NCBI GenBank assembly: GCA_002403855.1
Contig: DHIO01000026.1
Coordinates: 183,627-247,626, forward strand
Reading direction: 5' to 3'
From: Acidimicrobiia bacterium UBA4744
Lineage (GTDB): Bacteria; Actinomycetota; Acidimicrobiia; Spongiisociales; UBA4744
Length of the DNA stretch: 64,000 nt
In this document: positions 7,626 through 56,531 of the stretch, one piece after another
Layout: each line of letters begins with the position of its first letter
Position numbering within the stretch: position 1 is the first letter of the stretch
Position numbers and translations under genes: made by a program
The notes under the pieces: model-generated
Databases searched by the model: none
What the model was told of the DNA's origin: nothing
What the model saw: the letters and a program-made list of their open reading frames with translations, nothing else

Positions 7626-7627
7626 GG

Positions 7628-8773: not shown

Positions 8774-8799
8774 GCCGCGAGTATGGCTTGCCGGTCCGC

Positions 8800-10962: not shown

Positions 10963-11086
10963 CCGATCATGGTTCCCGGGGTGGGTTGAACCGCGCTCGC
11001 CCTGATGAACGACTCTTCTTCTCCTCCTAACCGTTTGCTGACAATCGCCGGCGACGCTGGTCACGACGCAGAGAAAGGAGACAACC

Positions 11087-11557: not shown

Positions 11558-11650
11558 TCGTCCGCAGTCCTTCCCGCCGGTCGGCCGGCCCCTGCCCGTG
11601 ATCGGATCCCGGGCGGGGGCCATCCTCCCGTAGCGAGTACTCTCTGTGCG

Positions 11651-12508: not shown

Positions 12509-12642
12509 TCACTGCGAGCATGCGTCGGAGGCCTGTGGCGCACTCCGCCGGCCGCAAGAACCGGATGAGCCGCACCCTTTCACCCTTCCGGCCATAATGT
12601 CGGCGACAGTTGAACTCCATCCCGGCGAAGGTGAGGAGCTGA

Positions 12643-14088
12643 TTGAAGGCAATCGTTGTTGGCGCCGGCGGTACTACTCGCGACTTGCTGCGACGTCTTG
12701 GTGACCTCTGGGACGTGACCGTCATCGACACAGATGACGAGCGGTTGGCCCTTGCAGCCGAGGTTCGCAACATAGCAGTAGTTCGGGGGGACGGCTCGTC
12801 ACGAGTCATCCTGGACCAAGCGGGGTTGCGCCAGGCCGACGCACTCGTGGCCGCCTCGAACAGCGACGCAGTGAACCTGGAAGCATGCCGCCTGGGCCTC
12901 GACCGGGGCGTCTTGCGGGTGGTTGCCGTCGCCGCCGATCCTGAACAGTTGAGCGACTATCGGGAACTGAAGCTCCCGGTCTTCTCTCCGGATCGACTCA
13001 CCGCGAGGAGAATCGAGATCAATCTCGAGCCGCGCCGCGTCGACTCGGCTGCTTTCGCTGACGGCATGGCCGAAGCAATCGAGTTCCGCATCGCCTCCGA
13101 CTCGCCGCTGCGGGGACGGGCACTCAGGGACCTCCACTCTGAGAGCTGGTTGGTTGCAGCAATCCTGCGCGAGGGCCGCCTCATCGTCCCGCACGGCGAA
13201 TCCGTCTTGCAGACCGATGACCGGGTCACCGTGGTTGGAGCGGCTTCCGACTTCTCCACGATCGTACGAACCTTCTCGACTGCCGAGGCTCGGTTCCCGA
13301 TCGATTTTGGGAAACACGTAGCGGTGTGGATGGAGAGCGAGCAGGATCTATCCGGACCCGTTGAAGAAGCCTTCACCATCACTCGCAACAGTGCGGCCGA
13401 GTCACTGCTGGTGGTCCGACCCGACCCCGCATCCCTTCGGGATGAGTCTCAAGCCGAAGTTCTGCACCGGCTTGTCGAGGAAGCTACACAGGGCCACGAG
13501 GGCGTCGACGTGGTCATCCGCGATGTAGATCCCGCCCAGGGCGAGGACCTGCTGTCTATTGCCGAGTCCGCCAACGTCGGTGTCTTGGTGTCTGCTCAGC
13601 CCGGCGGTGGACTGCCGGTGCGCAGGCGCCGGCTCGGCAAGCTTCTCAACGCTGCGTCCAGAGTGAACCTCCCGGTGCTCCTAGCCTCCGGACAACACCC
13701 CTACCAGCGGATTGTTGCCCCCGCCCGAGAAACTCCGGCGGGTCGGGCCGCAGGGCGAGTAGCCATCGACTTGGCCGTTCACGCCAACCTGCCGATCATC
13801 GGTGTCGCGGTGGTACCCCCGGCCTTCATTGCCGGAGAGGACGTCAGAGAGGAAGCTCTCCGCGCTGTGGCACGACTCCGGGAAGAAGCGGCCGTCCAAG
13901 GTGTCACCGTGAGGCGCCGAATCCGCCAAGGCAATCCTGTTCGCGCACTTCAGGAAATGGTGGGTTCTGGTGGTCTACTGGTTCTCGGCTATCCGCGCCA
14001 TAACCCGACAACGATGGTACCGGGCATCGTCGGACACGTCGTTGAACGCTCAAATTCTTCCATCCTGCTTGTTCCGTCCGAGGAATGA
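12643..14088 (+). CDS. TrkA-N/RCK-C domain protein fused to tandem universal stress protein (USP)-like domains
   Basis: KAIVVGAGGTTRD GxGxxG Rossmann. RCK_C-like IEFRIASDSPLRGRALRDL...DDRVTVVG. Then two USP-like alpha/beta units ending ...VVERSNSSILLVP. TTG start with GAGGAG upstream. Confidence 0.78.
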   Translation: MKAIVVGAGGTTRDLLRRLGDLWDVTVIDTDDERLALAAEVRNIAVVRGDGSSRVILDQAGLRQADALVAASNSDAVNLEACRLGLDRGVLRVVAVAADPEQLSDYRELKLPVFSPDRLTARRIEINLEPRRVDSAAFADGMAEAIEFRIASDSPLRGRALRDLHSESWLVAAILREGRLIVPHGESVLQTDDRVTVVGAASDFSTIVRTFSTAEARFPIDFGKHVAVWMESEQDLSGPVEEAFTITRNSAAESLLVVRPDPASLRDESQAEVLHRLVEEATQGHEGVDVVIRDVDPAQGEDLLSIAESANVGVLVSAQPGGGLPVRRRRLGKLLNAASRVNLPVLLASGQHPYQRIVAPARETPAGRAAGRVAIDLAVHANLPIIGVAVVPPAFIAGEDVREEALRAVARLREEAAVQGVTVRRRIRQGNPVRALQEMVGSGGLLVLGYPRHNPTTMVPGIVGHVVERSNSSILLVPSEE

Positions 14089-27132: not shown

Positions 27133-27765
27133 TCAGATGATCCTGCGGTCGGATGCCCATCGAGTCAGTTCGTAGCGCGACGACAACTGCAGCTTCCTGA
27201 GCACGGCGGACACGTGTGACTCCACAGTCTTGATGGAGATCGACAACCGGCGCGCCACCTGTTTGTAGCTGTAGCCTCGGGCGATCTGTCGGAGGACTTC
27301 CTTCTCGCGAGGTGTGAGCTGATCGAGTTCCGGATCCATGGGAGCGGGAACCGTCTCGGCAAACGCATCGAGGACGAAACCGGCCAGCCTGGGTGAGAAG
27401 ACCGCGTCTCCGTCGTTGACACGGCGGATGGCGGATGCCAGTTCCACGGGCTGGATCGACTTCGTGACATATCCGCGAGCGCCCGCCCGGATCATGGCGA
27501 TCACATCTTCGGCTGCGTCGGAAACCGAGAGCGCAAGAAATTTCGTTTCGGGTTGCGTCTCGTGCACAGCCCGCACGACGGCCAGTCCGCCTCCGCCGGG
27601 CATGTGCACGTCGACCAGCACGACGTCGGGTTGAGTCGCCTGAATGTCCTCGATAGCGTCATCGACGTCCGAGGCCACACCCACGAGTTCGAAGGAGGCG
27701 TCGAGTTCGGCTTTGACCCCGGACAAGAACAACTGGTGGTCGTCGACCAGAAACACCTTGATCAT
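27133..27765 (-). CDS. LuxR/NarL-family response regulator
   Basis: Receiver VFLVDDHQLF...VLVDVHMPGGGG...VTKS plus C-terminal HTH LTPREKEVLRQIARGYSYKQVARRLSISIKTVESH. 4-bp overlap with the upstream kinase. Confidence 0.9.
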   Translation of the reverse strand: MIKVFLVDDHQLFLSGVKAELDASFELVGVASDVDDAIEDIQATQPDVVLVDVHMPGGGGLAVVRAVHETQPETKFLALSVSDAAEDVIAMIRAGARGYVTKSIQPVELASAIRRVNDGDAVFSPRLAGFVLDAFAETVPAPMDPELDQLTPREKEVLRQIARGYSYKQVARRLSISIKTVESHVSAVLRKLQLSSRYELTRWASDRRII

Positions 27766-29051
27766 GGTTTCCTCATTGCGAGATGTACCTCGGTCCCCTC
27801 GCCCGGTTGACTCTGAACGCGGGCCGATCCTCCCTGACGGTGCAGCCGGCCGACGATCGAATCGGCGATACCACGTCGATCTTGCGGAACGGAGTCGGGA
27901 TCGAACCCAACTCCCTGGTCACTCACGTATATGTCCACGTTCGAACCCTCCACCTCCGCGAACACAGATACCAGGTCCCCACCCGAGTGCTTGGCGGCAT
28001 TGGTCATTGCCTCGCCGGCGGCCCCCACCAGGGAACGGATCGAATCATCGAGGGGAAGGTCACCGGCTGTAACCACATCAACAGGGACCTGGTGGGTTCC
28101 TTCCACCCGTGAGGCCATAGTCTCAAGAGCCTGGCGAAGGGTCTCATCGGTGGTTGCCTGTCCGCCGCCGTACAACCAGCTTCGTAGCTCGCGTTCCTGC
28201 AGACGGGCCAGCATCGCCATGCGGCGGGGATCGTCGGTCCTCTGCATCAAAGCCAGCGTCTGGAGAACGGAATCGTGGAGATGCGCGGCCACCTCAGCCC
28301 GCTCGTCCAGCCTGATCCGTTCTCGGCGCTCATCGGCCAGCTGGTTGACCAATCGCCACATCCAAGGGCCGAACACCAGCAGGAACCCGGCCACCGTCAC
28401 GACCACGGCCAGCACAACTCCACCCACCAGACCCACCGCGTCAATCGACTGGAGATAGAACCCCAGGCCGGCCGTCATGAGCACGCCACCCGCGACGATG
28501 CGCGCCGCACTCCCTCCCTTGCTCGTTTCACCGACGGGAAAGGCCCGGCGAGTCCAACGGGAACGGCGGGTCTGATCGATGAGCGACCACGTGAGGGCAA
28601 AACCGAACGAAGCCATCGCAACCGGCCAGACGAGCGAGTCGCCGAACCACAGGCCCAGCGACCGGAGCAGCAGCAAGAATCCGAAGAAGATCATGCCGAG
28701 GGCCACCCGACGCCGGGCCCCCCGCACCGCCAGCCTATTGTGCAATGCGGCCGCCGACTGCGGATCGGGGTCATCGAGGGTCAACACCCAACCGGCCAGA
28801 TAGGCCAGCACCCCTACTCCCCCGGCCAGGGCCAAGGTGATGAACCCTGCCCGCACAAACACAGGATCGATGTCCAGCACATCGGCGATACCGGCCGCCA
28901 GACCCGTGAGGACACGGTCGTCCTTGTTTCGACGAATTGCCAGGCCGGGTCGTTTGACCCGATCCGCGCTTGCAGTGTGATTGGTGACCTGATCGGTGAT
29001 GACGAACTCCTGACCCTGCGAAGATGATCCCACAGTGACTCCCGGCTCCAC
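27762..29051 (-). CDS. PspC domain-containing sensor histidine kinase (HisKA_3 type)
   Basis: PspC motif RVLTGLAAGIADVLDIDPVFVRAGFITLALAGGVGVLAYLAGW. TM block. H-box AAHLHDSVLQTLALM. HATPase (EAMTNAAKHS, DQGVGF). Confidence 0.85.
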   Translation of the reverse strand: MEPGVTVGSSSQGQEFVITDQVTNHTASADRVKRPGLAIRRNKDDRVLTGLAAGIADVLDIDPVFVRAGFITLALAGGVGVLAYLAGWVLTLDDPDPQSAAALHNRLAVRGARRRVALGMIFFGFLLLLRSLGLWFGDSLVWPVAMASFGFALTWSLIDQTRRSRWTRRAFPVGETSKGGSAARIVAGGVLMTAGLGFYLQSIDAVGLVGGVVLAVVVTVAGFLLVFGPWMWRLVNQLADERRERIRLDERAEVAAHLHDSVLQTLALMQRTDDPRRMAMLARLQERELRSWLYGGGQATTDETLRQALETMASRVEGTHQVPVDVVTAGDLPLDDSIRSLVGAAGEAMTNAAKHSGGDLVSVFAEVEGSNVDIYVSDQGVGFDPDSVPQDRRGIADSIVGRLHRQGGSARVQSQPGEGTEVHLAMRKP

Positions 29052-29147
29052 AACAGGTGAATACCCTGAGACAAACCCTCAGCATCGGGGTTTCTGAAGG
29101 GACACACCTCATAGACGCGTGGTGTGCCGGAGCCGGAGAATGCACCC

Positions 29148-30335
29148 ATGACCAACGACACGAATCTCGAGCTTCCACCCGAGGAGGCTGCCGGAAACGA
29201 CGAGCAGCCGCCGGACGGCGGAACAGAGGCCGCCCGCCCGCCTCTGCGTCGATACGACGGAATCCTGGGTGGGGTAGCCGCCGGCCTGGCCGGTTACTTC
29301 CGGCTTGCTCCGTGGCTGATCCGACTCGCGTTCGTCCTCCTGAGCTTCTTCGGTGGGCTTGGCATCTTGCTCTACGCGGCAGGCTGGCTCCTGATCCCCT
29401 CCACGGGAACCGACCAATCGATCGCCGATCACTGGTTGTCGGAATTAGGCGCGGGTCGATCGTGGATCGGTGCCGCCCTGATTGCACTGGCTGCAATCTG
29501 GCTGCTCACGTCTCTGGACATCACCCGCTGGGGTCTTGCCTGGGCAGTCGCGTTTCTCGTCCTGGGCGTACTCCTCTATCGACAGGAAACCCCCCCAGAA
29601 GAGAGTGCGTCGAGACCGGCCGAAGCCGCGGCAGGTTTGCCAGCACCGTTGGTCGGGCCTGCCGACAACCAGTCCCAATCGCCTCGTCGCTCGCCGGCAC
29701 GGCGGCCACGCCAACCGCGGCAGGTGCGGACGCCGTCCATGTTGGGCCGCTACACCCTGGCTGCCGGCCTCATCGGCGTTGGAGTACTCGCCCTGCTGGA
29801 CGGGGCCGGAGTCCTGTTCCCTGACGTGCGCCACTACCTGGCGCTGGCAGTGGGCATCGTGGGGATCGGTCTGCTGGTCGGAGCGGTCTGGGGTCGTTCC
29901 CGCCTGCTCATCGTCGTCGGACTCTTCCTGGCCTTTCTGATGGGCGCTGCGACCATCGGAGAAGCGGTAGATACCTTCACCGACGAGGTGCAGACCTATT
30001 CACCGGCAACTTTTGGTGAGGTGTCAACGAACTACACCATGGACAGTGGCACCCTGATCATCGATCTCACCAAGGTCGACTGGCAGAACCGGGTGATCGC
30101 CATCGACGCCGAGCTTGGGGCGGGCCGAATCGAAGTGAAGCTGCCCGAAATCGTCTCCGCCGCCGTGAACGCCCGCGCCGGGGTCGGGCAAGTCGAGGTC
30201 TTTGGGCGCAGCAGCGAAGGCTTCGGCATCGGCCGCTCGGCCTCAGTCACCGGGCCGGATGGATCCGGCGACATCACCATGACGATCCGAGTCGGAGCCG
30301 GCCAAATCACGGTCAACCAGGAGAGCAACTCATGA
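29148..30335 (+). CDS. PspC domain-containing membrane protein with LiaF/DUF2154-like C-terminal domain
   Basis: GILGGVAAGLAGYFRLAPWLIRLAFVLLSFFGGLGILLYAAGW PspC motif and several TM helices. The beta-rich C-terminus (...AGRIEVKLP...GVGQVEVFG...GAGQITV) resembles cell-wall-stress LiaF-type domains. ATG 29148 was preferred over GTG 29124 (GGAG upstream). Confidence 0.78.
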   Translation: MTNDTNLELPPEEAAGNDEQPPDGGTEAARPPLRRYDGILGGVAAGLAGYFRLAPWLIRLAFVLLSFFGGLGILLYAAGWLLIPSTGTDQSIADHWLSELGAGRSWIGAALIALAAIWLLTSLDITRWGLAWAVAFLVLGVLLYRQETPPEESASRPAEAAAGLPAPLVGPADNQSQSPRRSPARRPRQPRQVRTPSMLGRYTLAAGLIGVGVLALLDGAGVLFPDVRHYLALAVGIVGIGLLVGAVWGRSRLLIVVGLFLAFLMGAATIGEAVDTFTDEVQTYSPATFGEVSTNYTMDSGTLIIDLTKVDWQNRVIAIDAELGAGRIEVKLPEIVSAAVNARAGVGQVEVFGRSSEGFGIGRSASVTGPDGSGDITMTIRVGAGQITVNQESNS

Positions 30336-30715: not shown

Positions 30716-31936
30716 TCAGATGAGCCCCACCTGTTTGCCTACCTGTTCGAACGTCTCCAGAACGCGATCAAGTTGATCATCGGTGTGAGTAGCCATCACG
30801 CTGGTCCGCAGCAGCTGCCTTCCCTTGGGCGTCGCCGGGGAGATGATGGCATTGACGTAGATCCCGGCGTCCAGCAAGTGCTTCCACATGAAGAAGGTCA
30901 GTGTGTCGTCGCCGACGATCACCGGGATGACCGGCGTCACCGAAGCGCCGGTGTCGAAACCCAGCCCGCGGAGGCCGCTCCGCAGCCGGTCGGCGTTCGC
31001 GTGCAGCCGCACCACCCGCTCGGGTTCGGCTTGCATGACGTGCAAAGCGGTCAACGCCGCGGCCGCGTTCGCAGGCGGGATCGACGCGCTGAAGATGAGC
31101 GATCGAGCGTGGTGTTGGATGTAGTGAACGATCTGCTCATCTCCGGCTACGAAGCCCCCCAGCGAAGCCAGCGATTTGGAGAAGGTCGACATGATGAGGT
31201 CCACCGACTCCGTGACCCCGAAGTGAGCGGAGGTGCCGTGACCATCGGCCAGCACCCCCAAAGCGTGGGCGTCATCGACCATCAGCCGAGCCCCGAACCG
31301 CTTGCACAGTTCGACGATCTCGGGAAGAGGGGCCAAGTCTCCCTCCATGCTGTAGAGGCCGTCGACCACAACGAGCTTGCCGCGATCGGCGGGGACGTCG
31401 GCAAGGGTCCGCTCGAGTTGTTCCATGTCGTTGTGCCGGTAGCGCTTTATCTGGCCCCAGCTCAGCCGAGCGGCGTCGACGATGCTGGCATGATCCTCCT
31501 TGTCGAGGATCACCGTGTCGAAGCGGCCGACCAGCGACGACACAACTCCCAGGTTGGTTTGCATGCCGGTGGAGAACACCAAGCCGGCTTCCTTGCCGAC
31601 CCAAGCTGCCAACTCCCGCTCCAATTGAAGGTGAAGTTCGAGAGTTCCGTTCAGAAATCGCGACCCCGTGCAACTGGTACCAAACTCGGCGACTGCCTGT
31701 TGGGCTGCCTCACGGACCTTGGGGTGTGTGGTCAATCCGAGGTAGTTGTTCGAGCCGAACATCAAGATGCGGCGGCCCCGGTAGACGGCTTCGGCACCCT
31801 CGGTGCCCTCCATGGCGAGGAAGTACGGATAGAGGCCCAGCGCCTTGGTCTCATGGGCGATCGTGAAGGCATGGGCCTTGTCGAAGAGGTCCGCCATGAC
31901 AGCCGGCGGTGCGATGCCGGGTTCGGTGCTCGTCAT
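30716..31936 (-). CDS. spt: alpha-oxoamine synthase, serine palmitoyltransferase-like (PLP-dependent)
   Basis: GSNNYLGLTTHP, GTSCTGSRFLNGT, DDAHALG, YSMEGDLAPL, the PLP-Lys context MSTFSKSLASLGGFV and the C-terminal ...VGLI match my memory of Sphingomonas SPT better than Kbl or BioF. ATG 31936 overlaps the upstream stop (ATGA). Confidence 0.82.
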   Translation of the reverse strand: MTSTEPGIAPPAVMADLFDKAHAFTIAHETKALGLYPYFLAMEGTEGAEAVYRGRRILMFGSNNYLGLTTHPKVREAAQQAVAEFGTSCTGSRFLNGTLELHLQLERELAAWVGKEAGLVFSTGMQTNLGVVSSLVGRFDTVILDKEDHASIVDAARLSWGQIKRYRHNDMEQLERTLADVPADRGKLVVVDGLYSMEGDLAPLPEIVELCKRFGARLMVDDAHALGVLADGHGTSAHFGVTESVDLIMSTFSKSLASLGGFVAGDEQIVHYIQHHARSLIFSASIPPANAAAALTALHVMQAEPERVVRLHANADRLRSGLRGLGFDTGASVTPVIPVIVGDDTLTFFMWKHLLDAGIYVNAIISPATPKGRQLLRTSVMATHTDDQLDRVLETFEQVGKQVGLI

Positions 31937-32769
31937 GTCCTGCCGACCTTTCTTTTGGCCCTGGTCAAATCTCGATCCAGGAAGGCCCGGACCAGTTGCG
32001 GCGCATATCTTTGCAGCCTCCACACCATCCGTGTCCGATTTGGGAGAATATGGAACCTCCCCCGCACGATACCGTCGACGAACTGGCAAGCTACATCGTC
32101 CGGCTGGGCGAGTTTGATGTTGGCGGACATCTCATGGGTTTCGGGAGGTTTCGTGAGGTTCTCGCGAGCGAACCCCGGCGTGTCCGTGTCGGGTGGATAG
32201 AGTACCGATACCCGGAGCCCGGCCGGCCGCAACTCGTGGCGCAACACTTCGGCCAGGCCGACCAGGGCAAACTTGGACGGCGAGTAGGCCGCATAGCCGA
32301 TGATCCCAACATACCCCGCCACCGAGGAGACAAAGGCGATGTGTCCCCGGCGCGCGACCAGCATATGGGGCAGCACGACGAGCGTCGGGATCAATTGACC
32401 GAAGTAGTTGCAGTCCATCTGCCGCTGGTAGTCCTCGAGGCCGAGATTGCTGACGTAGTCCGGCTGGGCGTAGCCGACCGAGTTGACCAGGTAGTCGGGA
32501 ACCCCCCTCTCTGCGATCCAAGCCTCCAATTTGGGGCCAATGTCGTCCCGATCGGCTGCGTCGGCTGGGATCGTATCGACGAACTGGCCCGGCACCGAGG
32601 CAAGCGTGCGCAGGCGGCCGCCGGCTTCTTCAAGGGTTCCGTTGCCGCGAGCGACTACCGCTACCGACCCACCCAGTCGCACGATCTCCGCCGCGGTGGA
32701 GAAGCCGATTCCCTTGGATCCACCACACACGATGGCCGTGTGACCTGCCAGCCGGTTTGTATTCGCCAT
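31933..32769 (-). CDS. SDR family oxidoreductase, 3-ketodihydrosphingosine reductase (KDSR)-like
   Basis: CGGSKGIG cofactor loop and [15 protein letters not shown] catalytic Y-x3-K. [22 protein letters not shown] is nearly identical to the human KDSR segment [21 protein letters not shown] as I remember it. Confidence 0.82.
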   Translation of the reverse strand: [278 protein letters not shown]

Positions 32770-32903
32770 AGCGCCTCCACTCCCGCCGGATCTTGCGCCG
32801 GGCCGGGTGTGGCGTCGTAGCGTACGCGTCGGGCCATCCGAACGCTAGCGCGCCGGCCGGATCGGCTCCGTGCGAGAATCGACCGGGAAGAGAGGAGCAC
32901 TCG

Positions 32904-33152
32904 ATGACCCACGACGCGCCGGCCGTCAGGGCGCTTGGTGAAGCCGGGTATGAACCCAACCGGCTCGCCGCTCTGGCGGGGCTGAGGGGGAACGAGGTGA
33001 CGGCCGAACTGGTCGGGCGCCGGGCTCTCTCCGACAGAACCATGGCGGCCCTGCGGGGACTGCTCGGCCCTCATCTCGCCGAAGAAATCGCTGCACAGGC
33101 CGGTGCCTCGCGCGCCGCCTATCTGATGGAGGTCCAAGCCGGACGGATGTAG
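32904..33152 (+). CDS. small hypothetical protein, possibly HTH (XRE-like)
   Basis: AGAGGAG 6 nt before the ATG. LAALAGLRGNEVTAELVGRRALSDRTMAALRGLL resembles an XRE-type helix-turn-helix. It is divergent from the KDSR/SPT operon. Confidence 0.4.
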   Translation: MTHDAPAVRALGEAGYEPNRLAALAGLRGNEVTAELVGRRALSDRTMAALRGLLGPHLAEEIAAQAGASRAAYLMEVQAGRM

Positions 33153-33159: not shown

Positions 33160-33549
33160 TCAGGCGTCGATTTCGACCCTATCGAGCAACAAGAAATCGC
33201 GCGCTTGGAGACCGAGAAGCGAGACTCGCACCGGAAACGGCATGTGCCTGCTACCGGATGCCCATCCGACCACTCGTGGGTTGCCGAGCCGGATCGCCTC
33301 TCCGCTCCGAACCAGCACACAGGTGCCGGCAGCCTGCACGTTCTTGAGCCAGTCGACGTCACGACCATAGGTAAGCGCGATGGCGAAGCCTTCATCGGTG
33401 GGAAACGCAAACAGCGGCGTCCGGTACTCGTATCCGGTCACCCGCCCCCGATGCAAGACGATCGCCATCGGGCGGATCCGGTGAAAACGCCGCATGACGG
33501 GATTGGTGATCCGCTTGTTGAGACGGGCGAGACCTTTGGGAAGTGGCAC
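33160..33549 (-). CDS. deazaflavin (F420H2)-dependent nitroreductase family protein (Ddn/DUF385-like)
   Basis: LNKRITNPVMRRF, HRGRVTGYEYRTPL and YGRDVDWLKNVQAAG motifs. Length ~129 aa. Confidence 0.8.
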   Translation of the reverse strand: MPLPKGLARLNKRITNPVMRRFHRIRPMAIVLHRGRVTGYEYRTPLFAFPTDEGFAIALTYGRDVDWLKNVQAAGTCVLVRSGEAIRLGNPRVVGWASGSRHMPFPVRVSLLGLQARDFLLLDRVEIDA

Positions 33550-33567
33550 GCAGCCGAGGCTAGCTGG

Positions 33568-35604
33568 CTACGGCCGGGACTCGGTCTGGTCGGTCTCCAC
33601 CGAGGTGGACGGTTTCGCAGGAGTTTGGTCGAGCAAGCGAACGAAAGCGTCGAGGGAGCGTGGATTGGCCATGGCGTCACGGCGCACTGCTTGCTCGACA
33701 GGGATCCCGGCCAGGATTCGCTTCACCGGCACCTCCATTTTCTTGCCGTTCAACGTCAGCGGAACCTCGTCGATTCGGTAGATCTCGTCCGGCACGTGAC
33801 GGGGTGAGAGCTCCTCCCGCAAGGCATGCTTGATTCGCCGGCGGAGCCGATCATCGATCTCCACCCCGGCGGCGGGCACAAGGAACAACAGAAGGCGACC
33901 TTCTCGTCCCAACCTCCCGGTGTCGATCACCATGCTGTCCAAGACCTCCGTGAACCCATCGATCACCTGATAGAACTCGCTGGTGCCCATGCGGATGCCA
34001 CCCCGGTTGAGGGTGGAATCGGACCGTCCGTACACCACGCACGACCCGTCGGGATGGATCGAGATCCAGTCGCCGTGCCGCCACACCCCCGGGTACATCT
34101 CGAAGTAGCTGGATCGATAACGCTGCCCTCCGGGGTCGTTCCAGAAGTAGATGGGCATCGAAGGCATGGGAGCGGTGATGACCAACTCGCCCACCTCCCC
34201 GATCACCGGAGCACCGTGCTCGTCATAAGCCTCGATCTTCGCTCCAAGCTGCCGGCACTGGATCCGGCCGGCGCGCACCGGGAGCAGCGGGCAGCCGCCC
34301 AGAAAGGCGGTACAAAGATCCGATCCGCCGCTTATCGAAGCCAAGAGAAGGTCGGACCCCACCTCTTCGTACACCCAGGCGAACCCGTCGGGAGTGAGTG
34401 GAGCGCCGGTGGATCCTACGCTCCGCAGAGCACTCAGATCCAACCACCGGCCCGGATGGAGGCCGGCCCGCCTGCAGGCCTGGAGGTAAGGAGGGCTGAC
34501 GCCGAAGTGGGTCAGCTTCCCGGACTCGGCCAGCTTCCAGAGCACCAAAAGATCCGGATGGCTCGGGCTGCCGTCGTAGAGCACCACGGTCGTACCAACC
34601 AGAAGGCTCGAGATGAGGAGATTCCACATCATCCAGGCAGTCGACGTGTACCAAAAGAACCGGTCGCCTTCGCCGACATCGACGTGCAACGCCAATTCCT
34701 TCATGTGCTCGAGAAGGATGCCTCCCTGGCTCTGGACAATCGGTTTGGGCAGACCGGTGGTGCCCGAGGAGTAGAGAACCCACAAGGGGTGGCCGAAAGC
34801 CACCGGTTCGAACGTCAGTCGGTCGGAGGTGTGGACCAGATCGTCCCATGAGAGAGCACCGGCGACCGACCCCGCCGTGCGGTCGAGCCGGGATACCAAG
34901 ACGATTGCCTCCAGTGTCGGCAGCCGGGAGACGATCTGGGTGAGCACCTCCCGACGGTCGTGCTCTCGCCCGGCGAACCGGTAGCCGTCACAGGCGATCA
35001 AGACCTTCGGTTCGATCTGAGAGAACCTGTGCGCCACACTCTCGATACCAAATTCCGGAGCGCAGCTGGTCCATACGGCACCAAGGCTGGCCGTAGCGAG
35101 GAACGCGATCAGGGTCTCTGGAATGTTGGGTAGCAACGCTGCGACCCGATCACCCTTCACGACGCCGAGCCGGCGCAAGCCGGTGGCCGCCGCCGCCACC
35201 CGATCGTGGAGCTCGGCAAAGGTGAGTTGTTGGAAAGCCCCGTCCTCGGCCGCGGCGATCACGGCGAGGCGCCCGTCCCGGCGCCGCAGAGCATGCTCGG
35301 CGTAGTTGAGCTTTGCTCCCGGGAACCACTCGGCTCCGGGCATGGCTCGGTCGGGAAGCACGGCTTCGTGAGGTGCATGAGCAATGATCCCGAAGTACTC
35401 CCAGAGTGACCCCCAGAATCCGTCGAGATCGGACACCGACCATTCCCAGAGCGCCGTGTAGTCGGAGAACTCGAGTCGTCTCTCGGTCCGCAACCAGGCG
35501 AGATAGCGGGTGATGCCGGCTTGCGCAAGGGACTGTGCAGTGGGTTCCCACAGCAGGGTTCCGTCGATGATGTTGGAATCTTGCATCGATCCAACCATGG
35601 ACAC
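33568..35604 (-). CDS. acetoacetate--CoA ligase (acetoacetyl-CoA synthetase)
   Basis: N-terminal LWEPT...YLAWL...F.DY.ALWEWSVSDLDGFWGSLWEYF signature. AMP-binding YSSGTTGLPKPIV. Length ~678 aa. Confidence 0.85.
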   Translation of the reverse strand: MSMVGSMQDSNIIDGTLLWEPTAQSLAQAGITRYLAWLRTERRLEFSDYTALWEWSVSDLDGFWGSLWEYFGIIAHAPHEAVLPDRAMPGAEWFPGAKLNYAEHALRRRDGRLAVIAAAEDGAFQQLTFAELHDRVAAAATGLRRLGVVKGDRVAALLPNIPETLIAFLATASLGAVWTSCAPEFGIESVAHRFSQIEPKVLIACDGYRFAGREHDRREVLTQIVSRLPTLEAIVLVSRLDRTAGSVAGALSWDDLVHTSDRLTFEPVAFGHPLWVLYSSGTTGLPKPIVQSQGGILLEHMKELALHVDVGEGDRFFWYTSTAWMMWNLLISSLLVGTTVVLYDGSPSHPDLLVLWKLAESGKLTHFGVSPPYLQACRRAGLHPGRWLDLSALRSVGSTGAPLTPDGFAWVYEEVGSDLLLASISGGSDLCTAFLGGCPLLPVRAGRIQCRQLGAKIEAYDEHGAPVIGEVGELVITAPMPSMPIYFWNDPGGQRYRSSYFEMYPGVWRHGDWISIHPDGSCVVYGRSDSTLNRGGIRMGTSEFYQVIDGFTEVLDSMVIDTGRLGREGRLLLFLVPAAGVEIDDRLRRRIKHALREELSPRHVPDEIYRIDEVPLTLNGKKMEVPVKRILAGIPVEQAVRRDAMANPRSLDAFVRLLDQTPAKPSTSVETDQTESRP

Positions 35605-36806
35605 TAGTGAACGGCACCCTCGTGCCTCGCCGGGATCCTGCCGCTCGCGGCAATGAGGACCGCGGCGCCTCCCAGCAGAATGGCGGTGAAGACCATCGGA
35701 ATCCGGTAACCGCCGGTAGCGTCATGCAGAACCCCGACGAGGGCCGGCCCTGCTGCTCCGATGAGCGATGCCGCCGCCCATTGGGCTCCCATCGCTCGAC
35801 CGTATCCCGGGCCCGAATACCAGGTGCCCATTGCCATCGCCCGCAGCGGCAACACGGCACCGAATGCCAGGCCGAAAATGACGAAGTGGCCGGCGATCTG
35901 CCAGTAGTGCGTTCCGTCGACCATCAAGAACACCGCGATGGTCATCAAGCCCATCACGGTTGCCTGCACTCCAGTGGGACGGAACCTCCGGGCAACGAAC
36001 GGAGCGACCGACCGGCCCGGCAGGCTGAGCGCCGAAGCAGCTGCCGCCCACGCTGCAACTCCTGCCACCGCAAAACCGGCTTCTTCAAACAGCGCCACCC
36101 GATGAGAGAGCACCGCCTGGAAGCCGACGGCGCTCAGCACCATTCCCACAGTGAACAGCACGAAGCGGCGATCGCGCACGACGGTGCGGAGTAGAAATCG
36201 CTCATTGTGGGTAGCGACCTGCCCGGTCGGGGGCGGATTCTTGAGGAAGAACAGGGCCGTTCCGCCTCCAGTCACCAAGAACAACAGACCGAGCAACCGC
36301 ACGGTCGGGCGCCAATCCATCAGGCTGATCATGCGTTCGATCAAGGGCAGAAAGATGATGCCGGCCAGCCCACCGATGAGGGTGAGCACCGCCAGGGCAC
36401 GGGCGCGCTGCTCCTCGGTGCACCAGCGGTCGACGGCGACAAAGGCCGGCTCGTAGAAGGTCATGGCTCCGGCCGGGCCGATCAGCACCCACCAGGCGAC
36501 CAGTACGTGCCAGGGTCGGGTGGCGAGCGAGAAGAGCAAGAGACCTCCGGCCCCGAGCAGTGCGCCCCAACCGAAGATGCCTCGTACCCCTCGGCGATCG
36601 GCATGGCGCCCCACCGGGTATGCCAGCACTCCAGCCGCCAGAAGCCCGCCCCCGTAGGCAACGGACAGGAGCCCGGTGCTGAACTCGCCGCCGGCGGCGC
36701 CATCGGTGAGAAACACCGAGAACCCGTAGAGCATGATCCCGAACGCCACCATCACCGAAATGGACAGCGGGAGAATCTGCTTCCACGGAAAGGCCGTCTG
36801 GGTCAC
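35604..36806 (-). CDS. MFS transporter
   Basis: 400 aa with 12 TM helices. It sits directly upstream of, and abuts, the acetoacetyl-CoA synthetase gene. Confidence 0.8.
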   Translation of the reverse strand: MTQTAFPWKQILPLSISVMVAFGIMLYGFSVFLTDGAAGGEFSTGLLSVAYGGGLLAAGVLAYPVGRHADRRGVRGIFGWGALLGAGGLLLFSLATRPWHVLVAWWVLIGPAGAMTFYEPAFVAVDRWCTEEQRARALAVLTLIGGLAGIIFLPLIERMISLMDWRPTVRLLGLLFLVTGGGTALFFLKNPPPTGQVATHNERFLLRTVVRDRRFVLFTVGMVLSAVGFQAVLSHRVALFEEAGFAVAGVAAWAAAASALSLPGRSVAPFVARRFRPTGVQATVMGLMTIAVFLMVDGTHYWQIAGHFVIFGLAFGAVLPLRAMAMGTWYSGPGYGRAMGAQWAAASLIGAAGPALVGVLHDATGGYRIPMVFTAILLGGAAVLIAASGRIPARHEGAVH

Positions 36807-37605: not shown

Positions 37606-39561
<1,956 letters not shown>

Positions 39562-39627
39562 GGATCCTCCTGAGGGAGGAGGTCCCTCCTCCGGGTAACG
39601 TGTGACCGCGGCGGAAGGAGTGTGCCG

Positions 39628-40341
39628 ATGAAATGGCGGATGATGGCGGCAGTCTTCGTCGCGGTCGCTGTCGTCGGTGCCTGTTCGTCGACGCGGGACA
39701 CGACCACCACGGCGCCACCTACGGCTGCCGAGGTGCTGGCGCGAGCGGCGGAAACCATGGGTTCGGTCGAGACGGTTCAGTTCAGTATCGAGCGAGGTGG
39801 AGACCCGGTCTATATCGACACCCAGGGTTTTCTCGAGTTTGTGAGCGCCACGGGACGTTACGCGGCTCCGGGAGCAGCGGACGCGGTCGTCACCGTGAGC
39901 GCAGTGGGACTCAATACCGAGGTCGGAGCGGTGGTCATCGAGGGTGAAACCTGGCTCACCAACCCCATCACGGGGAGTTGGGAGCCGACTCCCCCCGGCT
40001 ATACGTTCGACCCGGCAACTCTGTTCGACCCGGAGGTGGGCTTCCGGGCCATGTTGCAGGAAGGAATCCTCAGCGTCGAGGACGTGGGTGACGAGATCAT
40101 CGAGGAGGAGTCTCTCCGCCATGTCCGGTTCACCGCATCCGGAGCACGAGTCGAGGTCGTTACCGCCGGCTTGGTGAGCGGCGTGGATGTCACGGTTGAT
40201 GCATGGATCGAACCCGATTCGGGCGAACTCCGAAGAGCCACCTTCTCGACGCCGATCGGTTCCGCGGCGACCGACTGGGACTTGAGGCTCTTCAACTACG
40301 GCGCCGAGATCACGATCACCCCTCCGGACCTTGAAGGATGA
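39628..40341 (+). CDS. lprG: LppX/LprAFG-family lipoprotein (LprG-like)
   Basis: Signal peptide MKWRMMAAVFVAVAVVGAC with a lipobox. Size and position immediately upstream of a 14-TM MFS gene (4-bp overlap) match the mycobacterial lprG-p55 operon. GGAAGGAG lies 7 nt before ATG 39628. Confidence 0.75.
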   Translation: MKWRMMAAVFVAVAVVGACSSTRDTTTTAPPTAAEVLARAAETMGSVETVQFSIERGGDPVYIDTQGFLEFVSATGRYAAPGAADAVVTVSAVGLNTEVGAVVIEGETWLTNPITGSWEPTPPGYTFDPATLFDPEVGFRAMLQEGILSVEDVGDEIIEEESLRHVRFTASGARVEVVTAGLVSGVDVTVDAWIEPDSGELRRATFSTPIGSAATDWDLRLFNYGAEITITPPDLEG

Positions 40342-41858
40342 GCCGGAAGGCTTCGCCCAACCTCGTTCTCGCAGTTGTCGGATTCGGTGTGTTCATCGCG
40401 GCGGATGACCTGACCGTGGTAGCCACCATGCTCCGTCCGATCATCGGTGACCTGGGAATCGTTCTGCCCGATGGCCTCAACCAGATGGCCTGGATCGTCA
40501 ACGCCTACCTGATCGCCTACGTAGCCGTGATGCCGTTCATGGGCCGGCTCAGCGATGTCCTCGGCCGGCGACGCACCTACATCGCTTCTCTGGTTCTCTT
40601 CCTGGCCGGTTCGCTCGTCGTCCCGTTCGCGCCCAACTACGGGGTCTTCCTGGTCGGCCGGGTGCTCACCGCCATGGGGGGCGGGGCACTGGTACCGATC
40701 GGACTGGCGATCGTCGCCGATGTGTTCGCCGAAAACCGCCGGGCCCGGGCCCTCGGGACCTTGGGGGCCATCGACACCCTGGGGTGGGTGTGGGGTCCGC
40801 TCTACGGAGCCATGCTCGTTCGGTTCCTCTCCTGGCGCTGGCAATTCTATCTGAACGTCCCTTTGGCCATTCTCGGCATCGTGGCGGCCTGGTACGTTCT
40901 GGATCGGGCCGGCAAGTCCGGCCGCGCTCGCATCGACTGGGTGGGGGCCGTCACTCTGACGGTTGGCCTCGTGGCTCTCAACGTCGCTCTCCTCGAATCA
41001 GCTCAAATCCAGAGCATCACCGGCCTGGAAGAGTTGACCGGGGCTGCTCGCGGCCCGATGTGGTGGCTGCTGGGATTGGCGGCCGTCGCCATCGCCGCCT
41101 TCGTCGCCCAAGAGACCCGCACCAAGAACCCGTTGGTTCCCCTGCAGCTCTTCAAGGGCCGCAATCTCACCATCGCCGTCATCGTCAACTTCCTGGTCGG
41201 GGCCACCTTGGTCATTGCCATGGTCGACGTGCCGCTATTCGTCAACGTGATGGAATCCGGCATCGAGCGGGCGGCGGTGATTTCTGGATGGGTTCTCAGT
41301 GCCCTCACCGCGGCGATGGCCGTCGCGTCCTACACCGGCGGCAGGATGACCGAACGCTGGTCGTACCGCCCGCCCATCCTGTTCGGCTTGGCCGCCGTCC
41401 TGGCCGGATTCCTGCTCATGGGTACGGGTTGGAACCCCGACACCCCCTACCTGCGAATGGCCTGGCAGCTAGCACTGCTGGGCACCGGTTTCGGGTTGGT
41501 GTTTGCACCGATCAACGCGGCAGTGGTCGATTCGGCTCCGCCGGATGAGCGAGGCGTGGCGGCGAGCTTGGTCATGGTGCTCAGGCTCATCGGGCTGAGT
41601 GTGGGTCTGTCCGGGCTCACCGCCTGGGGCATCCACCGTTACGAAGAGCTGCGCAAGACGATTGTGTTGCCACCGATCGGGGACCCCGGCTACCAGGAGG
41701 CGCTCCAACGCGCCCAGGAGGAGCTGACCACTTCCGCCCTGGCCGAAACCTTTCTAGCGGCGGGGGCGGTCATCGCCCTCGGCATTCTTGTGACGATGCT
41801 CATGCGGCCCGGACAGCCGGTCTCCGCGTCGCCGCGCAGCACACCCCACTCCGGCTGA
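40338..41858 (+). CDS. MFS transporter, DHA2 (14-TM) family, P55/Rv1410c-like
   Basis: 506 aa with ~14 TM helices. MFS motif GRLSDVLGRRR. Translationally coupled to the LprG-like gene. Confidence 0.85.
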   Translation: MSRKASPNLVLAVVGFGVFIAADDLTVVATMLRPIIGDLGIVLPDGLNQMAWIVNAYLIAYVAVMPFMGRLSDVLGRRRTYIASLVLFLAGSLVVPFAPNYGVFLVGRVLTAMGGGALVPIGLAIVADVFAENRRARALGTLGAIDTLGWVWGPLYGAMLVRFLSWRWQFYLNVPLAILGIVAAWYVLDRAGKSGRARIDWVGAVTLTVGLVALNVALLESAQIQSITGLEELTGAARGPMWWLLGLAAVAIAAFVAQETRTKNPLVPLQLFKGRNLTIAVIVNFLVGATLVIAMVDVPLFVNVMESGIERAAVISGWVLSALTAAMAVASYTGGRMTERWSYRPPILFGLAAVLAGFLLMGTGWNPDTPYLRMAWQLALLGTGFGLVFAPINAAVVDSAPPDERGVAASLVMVLRLIGLSVGLSGLTAWGIHRYEELRKTIVLPPIGDPGYQEALQRAQEELTTSALAETFLAAGAVIALGILVTMLMRPGQPVSASPRSTPHSG

Positions 41859-46018: not shown

Positions 46019-46639
46019 TCAGGGCGACTCGAGCGGATGGCGGGCCAACGCCTCGGACCGCACCTTGATGCCGAGCATGCACTTACGCATCATCACGATG
46101 TCGCCGAACTCAACGAGGAGATCGAACCCGAGCCGGGGACGAAACCACTGGTACCGAATCCGGACTCGGGTGATCAACCGGGTGGAGGTCTCGTCGATGG
46201 GGTCGAGGAGCCACAGCCAGGAGGAGTGTCCCGCATCATCAATCCACACCATCCACTCGAGAGGTTTGAAGTTCCACACCTTCAGGCCGTACTTGCCGTT
46301 CGGACTGATCGGTATCAGATCCCCGACCTCCAACTGCTGCAGCTCCGGGATGATTTCGGTAGCACTCGGTCGCCCGAGATTGTCGAGCCAGTCGTAGCTG
46401 TACCAGCCGGCTCGGTTGATCCCGATCTGCAGAAGCCACGGCCAGATGTGTTCCGGTCCGGCACCCACCGTTACCGCCCGGGTGGCATTGAAAGTCGGCC
46501 GCTCGACCAGCTCGTCGCCGGGCATCGACCGGGCTACCTCTTCACCGTCGGCGCCCCACCGGAGCTGTCGGGGCCGGACGATGCCGAAGTAGAAACCGGC
46601 CATGCCGAGGGCGACCAACCCTGGGTAGCGAATCCCCAC
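46019..46639 (-). CDS. SRPBCC-superfamily protein with N-terminal TM segment
   Basis: Length and pattern (...AVTVGAGPEHIWPWLLQIGINRAGWYSYDWLDN...) are typical of actinobacterial SRPBCC proteins. Confidence 0.6.
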   Translation of the reverse strand: MGIRYPGLVALGMAGFYFGIVRPRQLRWGADGEEVARSMPGDELVERPTFNATRAVTVGAGPEHIWPWLLQIGINRAGWYSYDWLDNLGRPSATEIIPELQQLEVGDLIPISPNGKYGLKVWNFKPLEWMVWIDDAGHSSWLWLLDPIDETSTRLITRVRIRYQWFRPRLGFDLLVEFGDIVMMRKCMLGIKVRSEALARHPLESP

Positions 46640-46642
46640 CCC

Positions 46643-47119
46643 TTACACCTGCTTGGGAACGCCCCCCGTCCAACCGAACACGTAGCGCATGCACCTGTGA
46701 GCAAAATCGGATGTGGGGTCGAACATCAAGGGGCAACCGCCGTCGATGACCGTGATCCCCTTTTCTCGCCCGGATGCGGTCGCCTCCGGAGAGACGCTGC
46801 CCTGTCCGAACGACCGATGCATCCACACGTGCTTGACCCCGAGCTCATCGCACTCCTGCATCGTCGCCTCGGCTCTATCCGGACGGGTGCCGATGACCAC
46901 GGCTTCTACTCCCCCGGGGATGGAAGCGAGATTGTGGTAGCACGGATCGCCCTCAACCTGGTCGGCATTCGGGTTGACCGCAAACACTTCGTAACCGCGC
47001 TCCTTCAGCCGTTGATACACGATGTTGCTGCCGTGCCCCTGCGGCTTGCGGGAAACTCCTGTGACTGCGATCCGCTTGTGGGCCAGGAAATCCGTGGCCG
47101 CTTCCTTCACGGTGACCAT
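46643..47119 (-). CDS. CoA-binding domain protein (YccU-like)
   Basis: KRIAVTGVSRKPQGHGSNIVYQRLKERGYEVFAVNP Rossmann start. ~158 aa. Confidence 0.8.
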   Translation of the reverse strand: MVTVKEAATDFLAHKRIAVTGVSRKPQGHGSNIVYQRLKERGYEVFAVNPNADQVEGDPCYHNLASIPGGVEAVVIGTRPDRAEATMQECDELGVKHVWMHRSFGQGSVSPEATASGREKGITVIDGGCPLMFDPTSDFAHRCMRYVFGWTGGVPKQV

Positions 47120-47247
47120 CTCCACCTCTCCTAGTCGACTGCCTCAGTATCTCCCCCGGGCCTTGCCCGGCAACAGGGTCGAAGGTCAACTCTGCCTCCT
47201 GCACGGCAGCATGGGGTTAGGCTGCCGGCTCGGCCGAAAAGGCACCG

Positions 47248-49045: not shown

Positions 49046-49116
49046 CTCGTAGCCAGGTCGGGGGAAACCCCTGAGGACGACACCCGACCCTCAGGGATCT
49101 TGGAGGGTGACACCTC

Positions 49117-49581
49117 ATGGAAGTCGTGCCCCGGTTTCTGCAGCATGGGGTCATGGTTACTACTACCCAATCCTCAAACGGGTCGGCGACCCGTTCGCGG
49201 ATGGAACGCCCTGCTTCGGGACGAATCCTGGCAGGAGTTGCAGCCGCTATCGCCGAACGTGCCAACACCGCGACCTGGCTGGTAAGGCTCGGATTCGTGG
49301 TCACCACCTTCCTGGGCGGGCTCGGCATCCTGGCCTATCTCATCGGGTGGTTCACGATCCCGGCCGAAGGAAGCGCCGAGTCACCGGCCGACGACTGGCT
49401 CGACGCCGTGGCAACGCCGGGGCGCCGGGCCGGAGCTCTACTGGTTGCGGCGGCGCTGCTGATTCTGCTGAGCGGACTGGCACCGATCGGGCTACTGGTG
49501 GCGGGAACCGCGCTGATCATCGGGCTGCTGCTCGTCAAGGACGGTCAACCTGTCGAACCCGGGCAAGGAGAAGATCAATGA
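49117..49581 (+). CDS. PspC domain-containing membrane protein
   Basis: RILAGVAAAIAERANTATWLVRLGFVVTTFLGGLGILAYLIGW PspC motif plus two further TM helices. Confidence 0.8.
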   Translation: MEVVPRFLQHGVMVTTTQSSNGSATRSRMERPASGRILAGVAAAIAERANTATWLVRLGFVVTTFLGGLGILAYLIGWFTIPAEGSAESPADDWLDAVATPGRRAGALLVAAALLILLSGLAPIGLLVAGTALIIGLLLVKDGQPVEPGQGEDQ

Positions 49582-56528: not shown

Positions 56529-56531
56529 CCC

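Follow-up and report, generated by a model that had tools for sequence, protein, structure and literature searches.

One bacterial pathway to ceramides is the Caulobacter-type route. As set out in PMC12134224 and PMC11334938, this route relies on Spt, bCerS and CerR, to which a dedicated ACP and an acyl-ACP synthetase are often added, and 3-ketosphinganine is acylated first and reduced by CerR second. A different order was proposed for Bacteroides thetaiotaomicron, in which the serine palmitoyltransferase (SPT) BT_0870 acts first and the SDR BT_0972 then reduces the free keto base (PMC9278070). BT_0972 is the sole bacterial 3-ketosphinganine reductase reported so far: a distant SDR, about 16–30% identical to Tsc10/FVT1 ('no full homologs'), whose gene lies apart from that of the SPT and whose role in vivo is uncertain (PMC9278070). 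According to metagenome surveys, dozens of phyla carry Spt-like genes, in many cases with no bCerS or CerR nearby, and a replacement of the latter two 'by alternative non-homologous proteins' was proposed (PMC11334938). In the literature searched, no bacterium was described in which SPT is paired with a KDSR-related reductase, and nothing relevant was found on KDSR or SPT in Acidimicrobiia, Chloroflexota or Asgard archaea. An earlier note on the DNA analysed here, made from the letters alone, held that sphingolipids are not a recognised feature of actinobacteria. This claim has to be qualified, since 'several Gram-positive Actinobacteria' were already predicted to be sphingolipid-capable through Spt/bCerS/CerR, as summarised in PMC12134224, and the surprise at the level of the phylum is therefore smaller than first thought.

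The locus reported here lies in a 64-kb stretch of DNA, referred to below as the window, from an uncultured member of the Acidimicrobiia. It has the following features:

31933..32769, minus strand: first gene of the pair, a KDSR-like classical SDR of 278 aa, predicted to be a 3-ketosphinganine reductase
30716..31936, minus strand: second gene of the pair, an SPT-like alpha-oxoamine synthase of 406 aa, predicted to be a serine palmitoyltransferase
31933..31936, minus strand: ATGA in which the reductase stop overlaps the synthase start, read directly from the sequence
32774..32778, minus strand: GGAGG, 4 nt 5' of the reductase ATG, a putative Shine-Dalgarno-like element

The overlap of the two genes, already pointed out in the earlier note, was confirmed by translation and by direct reading: the reductase TGA occupies 31935–31933 and the synthase ATG 31936–31934, so that both are shared as ATGA. 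The same 4-nt overlap is retained in the eight closest Acidimicrobiia loci. Promoter, terminator and Rfam scans of 30.0–34.0 kb gave no signal above background. The host had been taken for an actinobacterium, and this agrees with the nearest homologues, which come from Acidimicrobiia MAGs, and with the flanks, where genes for a lipoprotein (LppX_LprAFG) and for a nitroreductase-family protein of the F420 type occur.

The synthase belongs to Pfam family Aminotran_1_2 (191.6 bits), and its translation contains the motifs GSNNYLGLT, GSRFLNGT, YSMEGDLAPL and TFSKSLASLGGFV as well as the C-terminal end VGLI, as had been noted. The proposal that it is an SPT rather than a Kbl or a BioF is borne out by family models, structures, active-site residues and a tree. 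Its best NCBIfam match is SerpalmtaseCFB with 523 bits, compared with 389 for bioF and 360 for Kbl. None of the three NCBIfam SPT equivalog models, each of which was made for particular phyla, is matched at its curated cutoff (SerpalmtaseCFB, 523.3 against 640; BetaP, 420 against 500; AlphaP, 337.6 against 670), and the scores for Kbl (359.7 against 460) and bioF (389.3 against 426.45) fall short as well. The best match in the PDB is the SPT of Sphingobacterium multivorum (SmSPT) with 434 bits, and further SPTs follow at about 300, whereas BioF and Kbl structures reach at most 274, cysteate acyltransferases 257 and 250, and CqsA 131 bits. The identity to SmSPT is 49.9% over 387 residues, against 33–34% to Kbl and BioF of E. 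coli. In an NJ tree of small taxon sampling with few outgroups, calculated with 200 bootstraps, the synthase is sister to SmSPT (bootstrap 100), and the two are joined next by the SPTs of Sphingomonas (99); the clade of characterised SPTs leaves Kbl and BioF of E. coli outside. The protein is 88–91% identical within Acidimicrobiia and 67–74% identical to its Chloroflexota homologues, many of the homologues being named 8-amino-7-oxononanoate synthase by JGI.

The active site was compared with SmSPT using the residue roles given in PMC10196870. The residues around PLP and substrate are SPT-like at N63, Y65, G91, S92, R93, F94, N96, H149, S196, D221, H224, T251, S253, K254, S283, A284 and R377. 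K254, the PLP lysine of the TFSK motif, aligns with SmSPT K244, and the His/Asp/His contacts H149, D221 and H224 with H138, D210 and H213; likewise, T251, S253, S283 and A284 align with T241, S243, S273 and A274. All sites that separate SPT from Kbl and BioF are in the SPT state, namely the GSRxxN loop (G91-S92-R93-F94-L-N96), S253 and A284. Three crystallised SPTs agree with the synthase at this loop, at the Ser before the PLP lysine and at the Ala of the phosphate loop, whereas the one Kbl and the one BioF in the alignment, both from E. coli, read SVRF.C/G/N and GSGH.S/G/T, respectively. The three differences from SmSPT (T90, N64 and I281) are each the residue found in Sphingomonas SPTs, and the Thr at position 90, which corresponds to Ala79 in SmSPT, also occurs in the characterised SPT of Sphingomonas wittichii. 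In SmSPT, Ala79 contacts the substrate side chain via water, and the serine hydroxyl is held mostly via water and the PLP phosphate (PMC10196870). Specificity for serine is not readable from the sequence. On the family scores and active-site residues, the synthase looks like an SPT-type enzyme.

The reductase matches Pfam adh_short with 126.8 bits and has the features of a classical SDR, with the glycine-rich G16-x-S18-x-G20-I-G22 and the Asn-Ser-Tyr-Lys catalytic set; the YSPSKFAL motif named earlier is present in its translation. Across 18 members of the family, G16/S18/G20/G22, R41, N121, S148-S149, Y162 and K166 are invariant. The earlier note had pointed to a segment nearly identical to the signature of human KDSR, and the comparison with a database sequence of primate KDSR (P0121) upholds this: the segment lies at residues 190–211, after strand 6, and contains x2-EN-x-TKP-x-ET. 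When L[YF]PPDT[DE]TP and a second pattern were searched in 185,579 species genomes, 430 stretches were found, 413 of them in members of the family. The reductase is 38% identical to primate KDSR (158 bits, covering the entire catalytic domain) and 38–40% identical to vertebrate KDSR (158–165 bits), while the best other solved SDR reaches about 90 bits. The validated fungal TSC10 scores 111–123 bits against vertebrate KDSR, and by such scores the bacterial protein is nearer to vertebrate KDSR than TSC10 is. TSC10 (8jat) is the second-best PDB match of the reductase. In a small NJ tree whose outgroup was limited to four other SDRs, the reductase, vertebrate KDSR and fungal TSC10 form a clade with 100% bootstrap support, apart from those four. 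Out of 1.84 billion cluster representatives, no more than 509 reached an E-value of 1e-30 or lower, among them members of eukaryotic length, and many family members carry the JGI label 3-dehydrosphinganine reductase.

The reductase aligns to residues 30–264 of the 332-aa primate KDSR, both termini of which are missing from it, and it has no transmembrane segment (the maximum 19-residue Kyte-Doolittle value is 1.55, against 2.87 in primate KDSR). The absence of the terminal anchors bears on localisation, not on catalysis. In the AlphaFold model (pLDDT 85.5), the C-terminus is formed by two basic amphipathic helices. A Foldseek search of this model against the PDB returned generic lipid and steroid SDRs, with TSC10 absent from the top 50, and thus did not set KDSR apart from other SDRs. 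From its sequence relationships, the reductase looks like a KDSR-type enzyme and is predicted to act on 3-ketosphinganine.

The association of the two genes extends beyond the Acidimicrobiia. The reductase is directly followed by the SPT-like gene in 12 of 12 Acidimicrobiia loci and in 10 of 18 Chloroflexota loci, where the surrounding genes are otherwise unrelated; a third conserved gene was sought in the Chloroflexota flanks and none was found. In Spirochaetota, the reductase family adjoins a block of fatty-acyl-AMP ligase, ACP and synthase in 10 of 14 loci. A single metagenomic protein (P0371) joins the reductase and synthase domains in one chain. This association in three bacterial phyla provides independent support for the SPT/KDSR reading. 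No synthase lies within 10 kb of the reductase in the remaining eight of the 18 Chloroflexota loci or in any of 21 Asgard loci; the role of the reductase may exceed sphingoid-base synthesis, or its partner gene may be located elsewhere. Among the Asgard carriers of the reductase family are Promethearchaeum syntrophicum and Lokiarchaeum ossiferum, both with closed genomes. The genes downstream of the synthase in relatives encode a peptidase inhibitor of the chagasin type and, at two loci, a kinase of the APH family. As the bacterial kinases known to act on ceramide and sphingosine belong to the DAG-kinase type, this kinase could not be linked to the pathway.

Genes for later steps were sought by Pfam over nearly the whole window. 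No ceramide synthase, CerR, ACP, fatty-acyl ligase or sphingolipid kinase was found; with respect to bCerS and CerR, this search also gave no acetyltransferase and no epimerase-type reductase adjoining the synthase. Nor does the window contain tdh or bio genes or a cysteate synthase gene, and two ORFs (46037–47134 and 49107–50264) had no family matches. The earlier statement that no ceramide synthase, ACP or ligase is adjacent thus holds for fatty-acyl functions but overlooked an AMP-binding gene (33568–35604, minus strand) 0.8 kb upstream. As a candidate fatty-acyl ligase, this gene was rejected because its product is recognised as acetoacetate--CoA ligase, with 955 bits where the cutoff is 639. 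An upstream ORF of 129 aa, considered as an ACP, turned out to encode a deazaflavin-nitroreductase-family protein; the synteny of both is confined to close relatives. The divergent ORF at 32904–33152 exists as described earlier, but its designation as XRE-like is unsupported: its 82-aa product has no Pfam match, and it is kept in only three of eight close relatives.

Several other readings of the pair have to be weighed against the synthesis of a sphingoid base. The same chemistry could be performed with a fatty acyl thioester and, in place of serine, alanine, glycine, cysteate or threonine. The reductase would then not yield sphinganine but a different amino-alcohol lipid, such as a 1-deoxy-sphingoid base or a sulfonolipid base like capnine. 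Capnine synthesis likewise uses an oxoamine synthase together with a reductase of the SDR type, which speaks for this possibility, as does the fact that the synthase lies beneath every SPT equivalog cutoff. Moreover, its position 90, where Ala79 of SmSPT makes the water-mediated contact with the side chain, is Thr, and 1-deoxyceramides and varied head groups are abundant in environmental bacteria (PMC11334938). However, the S. wittichii enzyme has the same Thr, all the remaining substrate-site residues are in the SPT state, and the cysteate acyltransferases score 257 and 250 bits against 434 for SPT, with no cysteate synthase gene in the window. A substrate other than serine is therefore considered unlikely.

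The two enzymes could also serve specialised metabolism or signalling instead of membrane-lipid synthesis, their product being a small molecule such as an autoinducer or natural product of the amino-ketone or amino-alcohol type. Oxoamine synthases do serve such pathways, the autoinducer enzyme CqsA being matched at 131 bits, and both the isolation of the module from any nearby ceramide synthase and the APH-family kinase that follows the synthase in two relatives would be compatible with such a function. Yet PKS, NRPS and tailoring genes are absent from the flanks of every locus, the synthase is closest to membrane-lipid SPTs, and its very high conservation (88–91% in Acidimicrobiia, 67–74% with Chloroflexota) fits a core lipid enzyme, which makes this reading highly improbable. 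The plainest explanation, two housekeeping enzymes with the synthase acting as Kbl in threonine breakdown or as BioF in biotin synthesis next to an unrelated SDR, draws on the JGI name of many homologues, on a bioF score (389) near its cutoff (426) and on the kbl-tdh pair, a classic two-gene operon seen in E. coli. It is largely refuted and retains hardly any probability: the synthase scores beneath the bioF and Kbl cutoffs and higher on the SPT models, is 50% identical to SmSPT but 33–34% to E. coli Kbl and BioF and lies outside both in the tree, and has its discriminating residues in the SPT state, not that of Kbl or BioF. Furthermore, bio genes are missing from the window, and the SDR is of the KDSR type and not a threonine dehydrogenase.

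On computational evidence, the pair is thus read, with good though not full confidence, as a two-step module for a sphingoid long-chain base, most likely sphinganine, in uncultured Acidimicrobiia. In the first step, the soluble PLP-dependent synthase would join L-serine with a long-chain acyl thioester to give 3-ketosphinganine and CO2. The acyl group would probably be supplied by acyl-CoA or by housekeeping acyl-ACP, given that neither a dedicated ACP nor a fatty-acyl ligase is found nearby. In the second step, the KDSR-like reductase would convert the 3-keto group to give sphinganine, probably with NADPH, since Arg41, which follows the second beta-strand, is invariant. The order would be the eukaryotic one, in which the free base is reduced first and acylated afterwards; here, the base might end up in ceramide or be used as such. 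The ATGA overlap should couple the translation of both enzymes, and a build-up of the keto intermediate would thereby be limited.

A wider reading, put forward tentatively, is that a compact family of genuine KDSR orthologues exists in prokaryotes and that the eukaryotic SPT-then-KDSR route predates eukaryotes or is shared with them. The members of such a family come from Acidimicrobiia, Chloroflexota (Anaerolineae), Spirochaetota and Asgard archaea, with no adjacent SPT in Asgard. If this were true, monoderm actinobacteria would make long-chain bases by this route instead of the bCerS/CerR route, and the ancestry of the eukaryotic reductase could be traced to prokaryotes, possibly to Asgard archaea. 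The occurrence of the reductase family in Asgard archaea touches on how the sphingolipid pathway of eukaryotes arose. For some of the lineages with Spt-like genes, the gap left by bCerS and CerR would be filled by a KDSR-type reductase that shares an operon with Spt in three phyla, and the gene pair, at present labelled BioF and generic SDR, would serve as a cheap genomic marker.

Compared with the soluble bacterial SPTs (SmSPT, 3A2B/8GUH; those of Sphingomonas paucimobilis and S. wittichii), the synthase is alike in length and soluble architecture, and its PLP- and serine-site residues are either conserved or swapped for those of other SPTs; it differs in its Gram-positive-type Acidimicrobiia host and in its predicted translational coupling to a KDSR-type reductase. 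The Caulobacter-type pathway has a homologous soluble Spt, but the reductase adjoining it here is of a different family and is not an NDUFA9-like CerR. The Spirochaetota loci share the reductase family (44–49% identity) and its link to an oxoamine synthase. Their synthase is of another lineage (37–38% identity), with P82 and C85 in place of the R and N of the GSRxxN loop, and is accompanied by its own fatty acyl-AMP ligase and ACP in a block divergent from the reductase. With eukaryotic KDSR/FVT1/TSC10 (8JAT), the reductase has in common the catalytic residues, the Arg after strand 2 and the signature segment, whereas it lacks the N- and C-terminal hydrophobic anchors (278 against 332 aa) and is encoded in an operon with SPT. 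The order of steps had earlier been called eukaryote/Bacteroidetes-style; the eukaryotic part of this description stands, but Bacteroidetes fits only loosely, given the 16–30% identity and unclustered gene of BT_0972 (PMC9278070). Compared with BT_0870 and BT_0972, the latter by its published description, the reaction order is alike, and the reductase found here is a clear KDSR relative whose gene overlaps that of the SPT.

The two genes of the proposed module lie on the minus strand and overlap at their ends:

31933-32769, minus strand: reductase gene, 278 aa, Pfam adh_short
30716-31936, minus strand: synthase gene, 406 aa, Pfam Aminotran_1_2
31936-31933, minus strand: ATGA overlap of the reductase stop and the synthase start, read from the sequence

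A GGAGG is located 4 nt 5' of the reductase ATG, and the overlap would couple the translation of the two genes. Both the overlap and all the motifs that the earlier note had named for the two proteins are present. The G+C content of the window is about 63–65% throughout, and its DNA is also present in three independent public assemblies. The host had been called an apparent actinobacterium. This is right, and the class is Acidimicrobiia, since both proteins have their nearest homologues in Acidimicrobiia MAGs and the flanks carry a deazaflavin-type nitroreductase-family gene as well as an LppX_LprAFG lipoprotein gene next to its MFS partner.

The 3-ketodihydrosphingosine reductase (KDSR) motif was checked against a database entry. 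The human KDSR query was 99% identical to the database primate KDSR cluster P0121. Over 235 residues that include the 23-residue signature segment, the window reductase aligned to P0121 at 38% identity (158 bits), and the near-identity of that segment was borne out. Vertebrate KDSR and fungal TSC10, both validated, reach only 111–123 bits against each other, and the window reductase therefore falls inside the sequence spread of validated KDSRs. In a small neighbour-joining (NJ) tree, the prokaryotic family formed a clade with vertebrate and fungal KDSRs against four other SDRs (100% bootstrap), with the eukaryotic KDSRs as its sister. Among solved structures, Cryptococcus TSC10 (3-ketodihydrosphingosine reductase) was the second-best match (89 bits), in a near-tie with clavulanate dehydrogenase. 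The AlphaFold model was confident, and the matches of a fold search with it were non-specific. Eukaryotic KDSRs have terminal hydrophobic anchors, whereas the window reductase does not. Of 1.84 billion cluster representatives, all scanned, only 509 matched at E ≤ 1e-30 versus 13,294 at 1e-10; the stricter set includes members of about 330 aa, one of which came from a protist transcriptome. Many family members are named 3-dehydrosphinganine reductase by JGI, and generic SDR by NCBI.

For the synthase, the Bacteroidota-type serine palmitoyltransferase (SPT) equivalog ranked first among NCBIfam models (523 bits), followed by betaproteobacterial SPT (420), bioF (389) and Kbl (360), the protein scoring under the curated cutoff of each. 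Among solved structures, Sphingobacterium multivorum SPT (SmSPT) scored 434 bits and Sphingomonas SPTs about 295–304; a Thermus BioF/Kbl enzyme (274), cysteate acyltransferases (257 and 250) and Kbl (at most 254) scored lower, as did BioF, ALAS and CqsA structures. A bootstrapped NJ tree was built with three SPT sequences restored from printed alignments and with the Kbl and BioF of E. coli MG1655. One clade (bootstrap 100%) united the window synthase and SmSPT with the relatives of the synthase from Acidimicrobiia and Chloroflexota, and the Sphingomonas SPTs joined it at 99%. No transmembrane segments were predicted.

The two-step sphingoid base module thus finds computational support in the SPT and KDSR placements, the active-site residues and the synteny, and we consider it likely that the gene pair is such a long-chain-base module. 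The synthase would make 3-ketosphinganine from serine and an acyl thioester, and the KDSR-like reductase, probably NADPH-using, would reduce this keto product to sphinganine. The main rival keeps this chemistry and replaces serine by another amino acid, which seems unlikely: with roles taken from the crystallographic study of SmSPT (PMC10196870), the PLP-contact and substrate-site residues are all conserved, and the three differences from SmSPT (T90, N64 and I281) are each as in Sphingomonas SPTs. A specialised-metabolite role of the pair is less probable still. A housekeeping role of the Kbl/BioF kind is very improbable; Kbl and BioF fall outside the SPT clade, the identity to them is 33–34% versus 49.9% to SmSPT, and the window synthase carries the SPT state at the positions that set SPTs apart from both.

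A long-chain-base module is also consistent with the neighbourhoods in other genomes. Two family patterns scanned over 185,579 species-representative genomes gave 413 reductase family members, and 80 loci were retrieved.

Synthase near reductase in the 80 retrieved loci
Acidimicrobiia: 12/12; immediately 3' of the reductase and co-directional, with the ATGA overlap retained in the 8 closest
Chloroflexota (testable loci): 10/18; likewise immediately 3' and co-directional
Spirochaetota: 10/14; reductase divergent from a ligase-ACP-synthase block

No synthase was found within 10 kb of the reductase in Asgard archaea (0/21 loci) or other archaea (0/4). The pair behaves as a unit, because the Chloroflexota flank genes are otherwise unrelated between loci. 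The synthase is unusually conserved (88–91% within Acidimicrobiia, 67–74% to Chloroflexota), the reductase less so (70–78% and 50–55%).

The Spirochaetota block, perhaps an alternative form of the module that depends on an ACP, encodes a fatty acyl-AMP ligase, an ACP of 106 aa that carries a DSL motif, and an oxoamine synthase that is more distant. In L051 the block and the divergent reductase lie at 5870-9424 and 9983-10822, a layout repeated in L049, L052, L057, L058, L060, L068, L069, L072 and L081; the synthase is 37–38% identical to that of the window, with P/C replacing R/N in the GSRxxN loop. In the metagenomic protein P0371 (744 aa, on one ENA metagenome contig of 5.3 kb), residues 43-387 form an oxoamine synthase domain and residues 473-668 a KDSR-like SDR domain with 40% identity to the window reductase; the fusion was seen only once and may be an artefact of assembly or gene calling. 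In an Anaerolineales MAG (L012), the reductase is followed by an SPT-like tandem pair (10926-12104 and 12422-13600), whose identities to the window synthase are 70% and 64%; the SPT model is the best match of each. Two Acidimicrobiia relatives carry an APH-family phosphotransferase gene directly after the synthase on the same strand (L010, 12087-13079; L007, 12163-13242). The window has no such gene, and the bacterial kinases known to act on ceramide and sphingosine are of another type, that of DAG kinases.

The module is surrounded in the window by the following genes:

27133-30335, adjoining the synthase gene: PspC/LiaF-domain protein, PspC-domain histidine kinase and LuxR-type response regulator
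33160-36806, minus strand, 5' of the module: MFS transporter, acetoacetate–CoA ligase and 129-aa deazaflavin-nitroreductase-family gene
37606-39561, plus strand: second acetyl-CoA-synthetase-like gene
39622-41858, plus strand: LppX_LprAFG-family lipoprotein gene, then MFS transporter gene (Pfam domains only)
46037-47134 and 49107-50264, plus strand: two putative long ORFs (365 and 385 aa), with no match in Pfam or NCBIfam
53680-62317, minus strand: three-subunit xanthine-dehydrogenase-like enzyme, AllG/AllF/AllH-type genes and AtzD/TrzD-type ring-opening amidohydrolase

Pfam and NCBIfam searches of almost the whole 64-kb window found no bCerS-kind acetyltransferase, CerR-like reductase, TLC/Lag1 domain or DAG-kinase-type lipid kinase. 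The earlier note had seen no adjacent ceramide synthase, ACP or acyl-CoA ligase; the first two are indeed missing, but the AMP-binding gene two genes 5' of the reductase is a ligase of the acetoacetate–CoA type, well above the model cutoff. The 129-aa gene between them was considered as an ACP and ruled out by its family. This upstream set also precedes the module in close Acidimicrobiia relatives, and no link between the two could be shown. The divergent small ORF exists (82 aa, kept in three relatives only), but its XRE-like character found no support, as it matches no family. The set adjoining the synthase is of the cell-envelope-stress type and keeps its position in 5–6 Acidimicrobiia relatives. 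The lipoprotein-transporter layout is reminiscent of the mycobacterial LprG/Rv1410c lipid-transport pair, and the cluster at 53680-62317 may be an island for the catabolism of purines, pyrimidines or triazine rings.

Asgard members of the reductase family are widespread, two closed genomes included, and are 43–51% identical to the window reductase with the signature motif kept. They occur in Promethearchaeum syntrophicum MK-D1 (L042, 9962-10801), Lokiarchaeum ossiferum (L059, 9971-10825), L025 and about 20 other loci. In most cases the gene before it encodes a 131-aa membrane protein without a Pfam match, and a 367-aa NAD-kinase/DAG-kinase-like gene follows it in 13 archaeal loci, mostly Asgard. 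Only tentatively do we suggest that the prokaryotic KDSR family, with these members, is relevant to how the eukaryotic pathway arose. A search of non-subscription literature found no paper that connects either KDSR or SPT with Acidimicrobiia, Chloroflexota or Asgard archaea.

Ceramide synthesis as known from Caulobacter uses Spt, bCerS and CerR, with acylation preceding reduction. A survey of the Black Sea reported Spt-like genes in 38 phyla (218 Chloroflexota MAGs among them), often without bCerS or CerR nearby, and none in archaea; a KDSR-type enzyme was not considered (PMC11334938). Sphingolipids had been thought unrecognised in actinobacteria, but the potential had already been predicted for some of them through the Spt/bCerS/CerR triad (summarised in PMC12134224). 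Bacteria were stated in 2024 to lack homologues of the eukaryotic enzymes except Spt (PMC11087976). Only one 3-ketosphinganine reductase has been reported from bacteria, BT_0972; it shares 16–30% identity with Tsc10/FVT1, and its gene lies apart from that of its SPT (PMC9278070), whereas the window reductase gene overlaps an SPT-like gene. Both kinds of enzyme are already known; what is new, judging by sequence, is a clear bacterial KDSR orthologue in one predicted operon with SPT, which would imply that a monoderm lineage takes the steps in the order used by eukaryotes.
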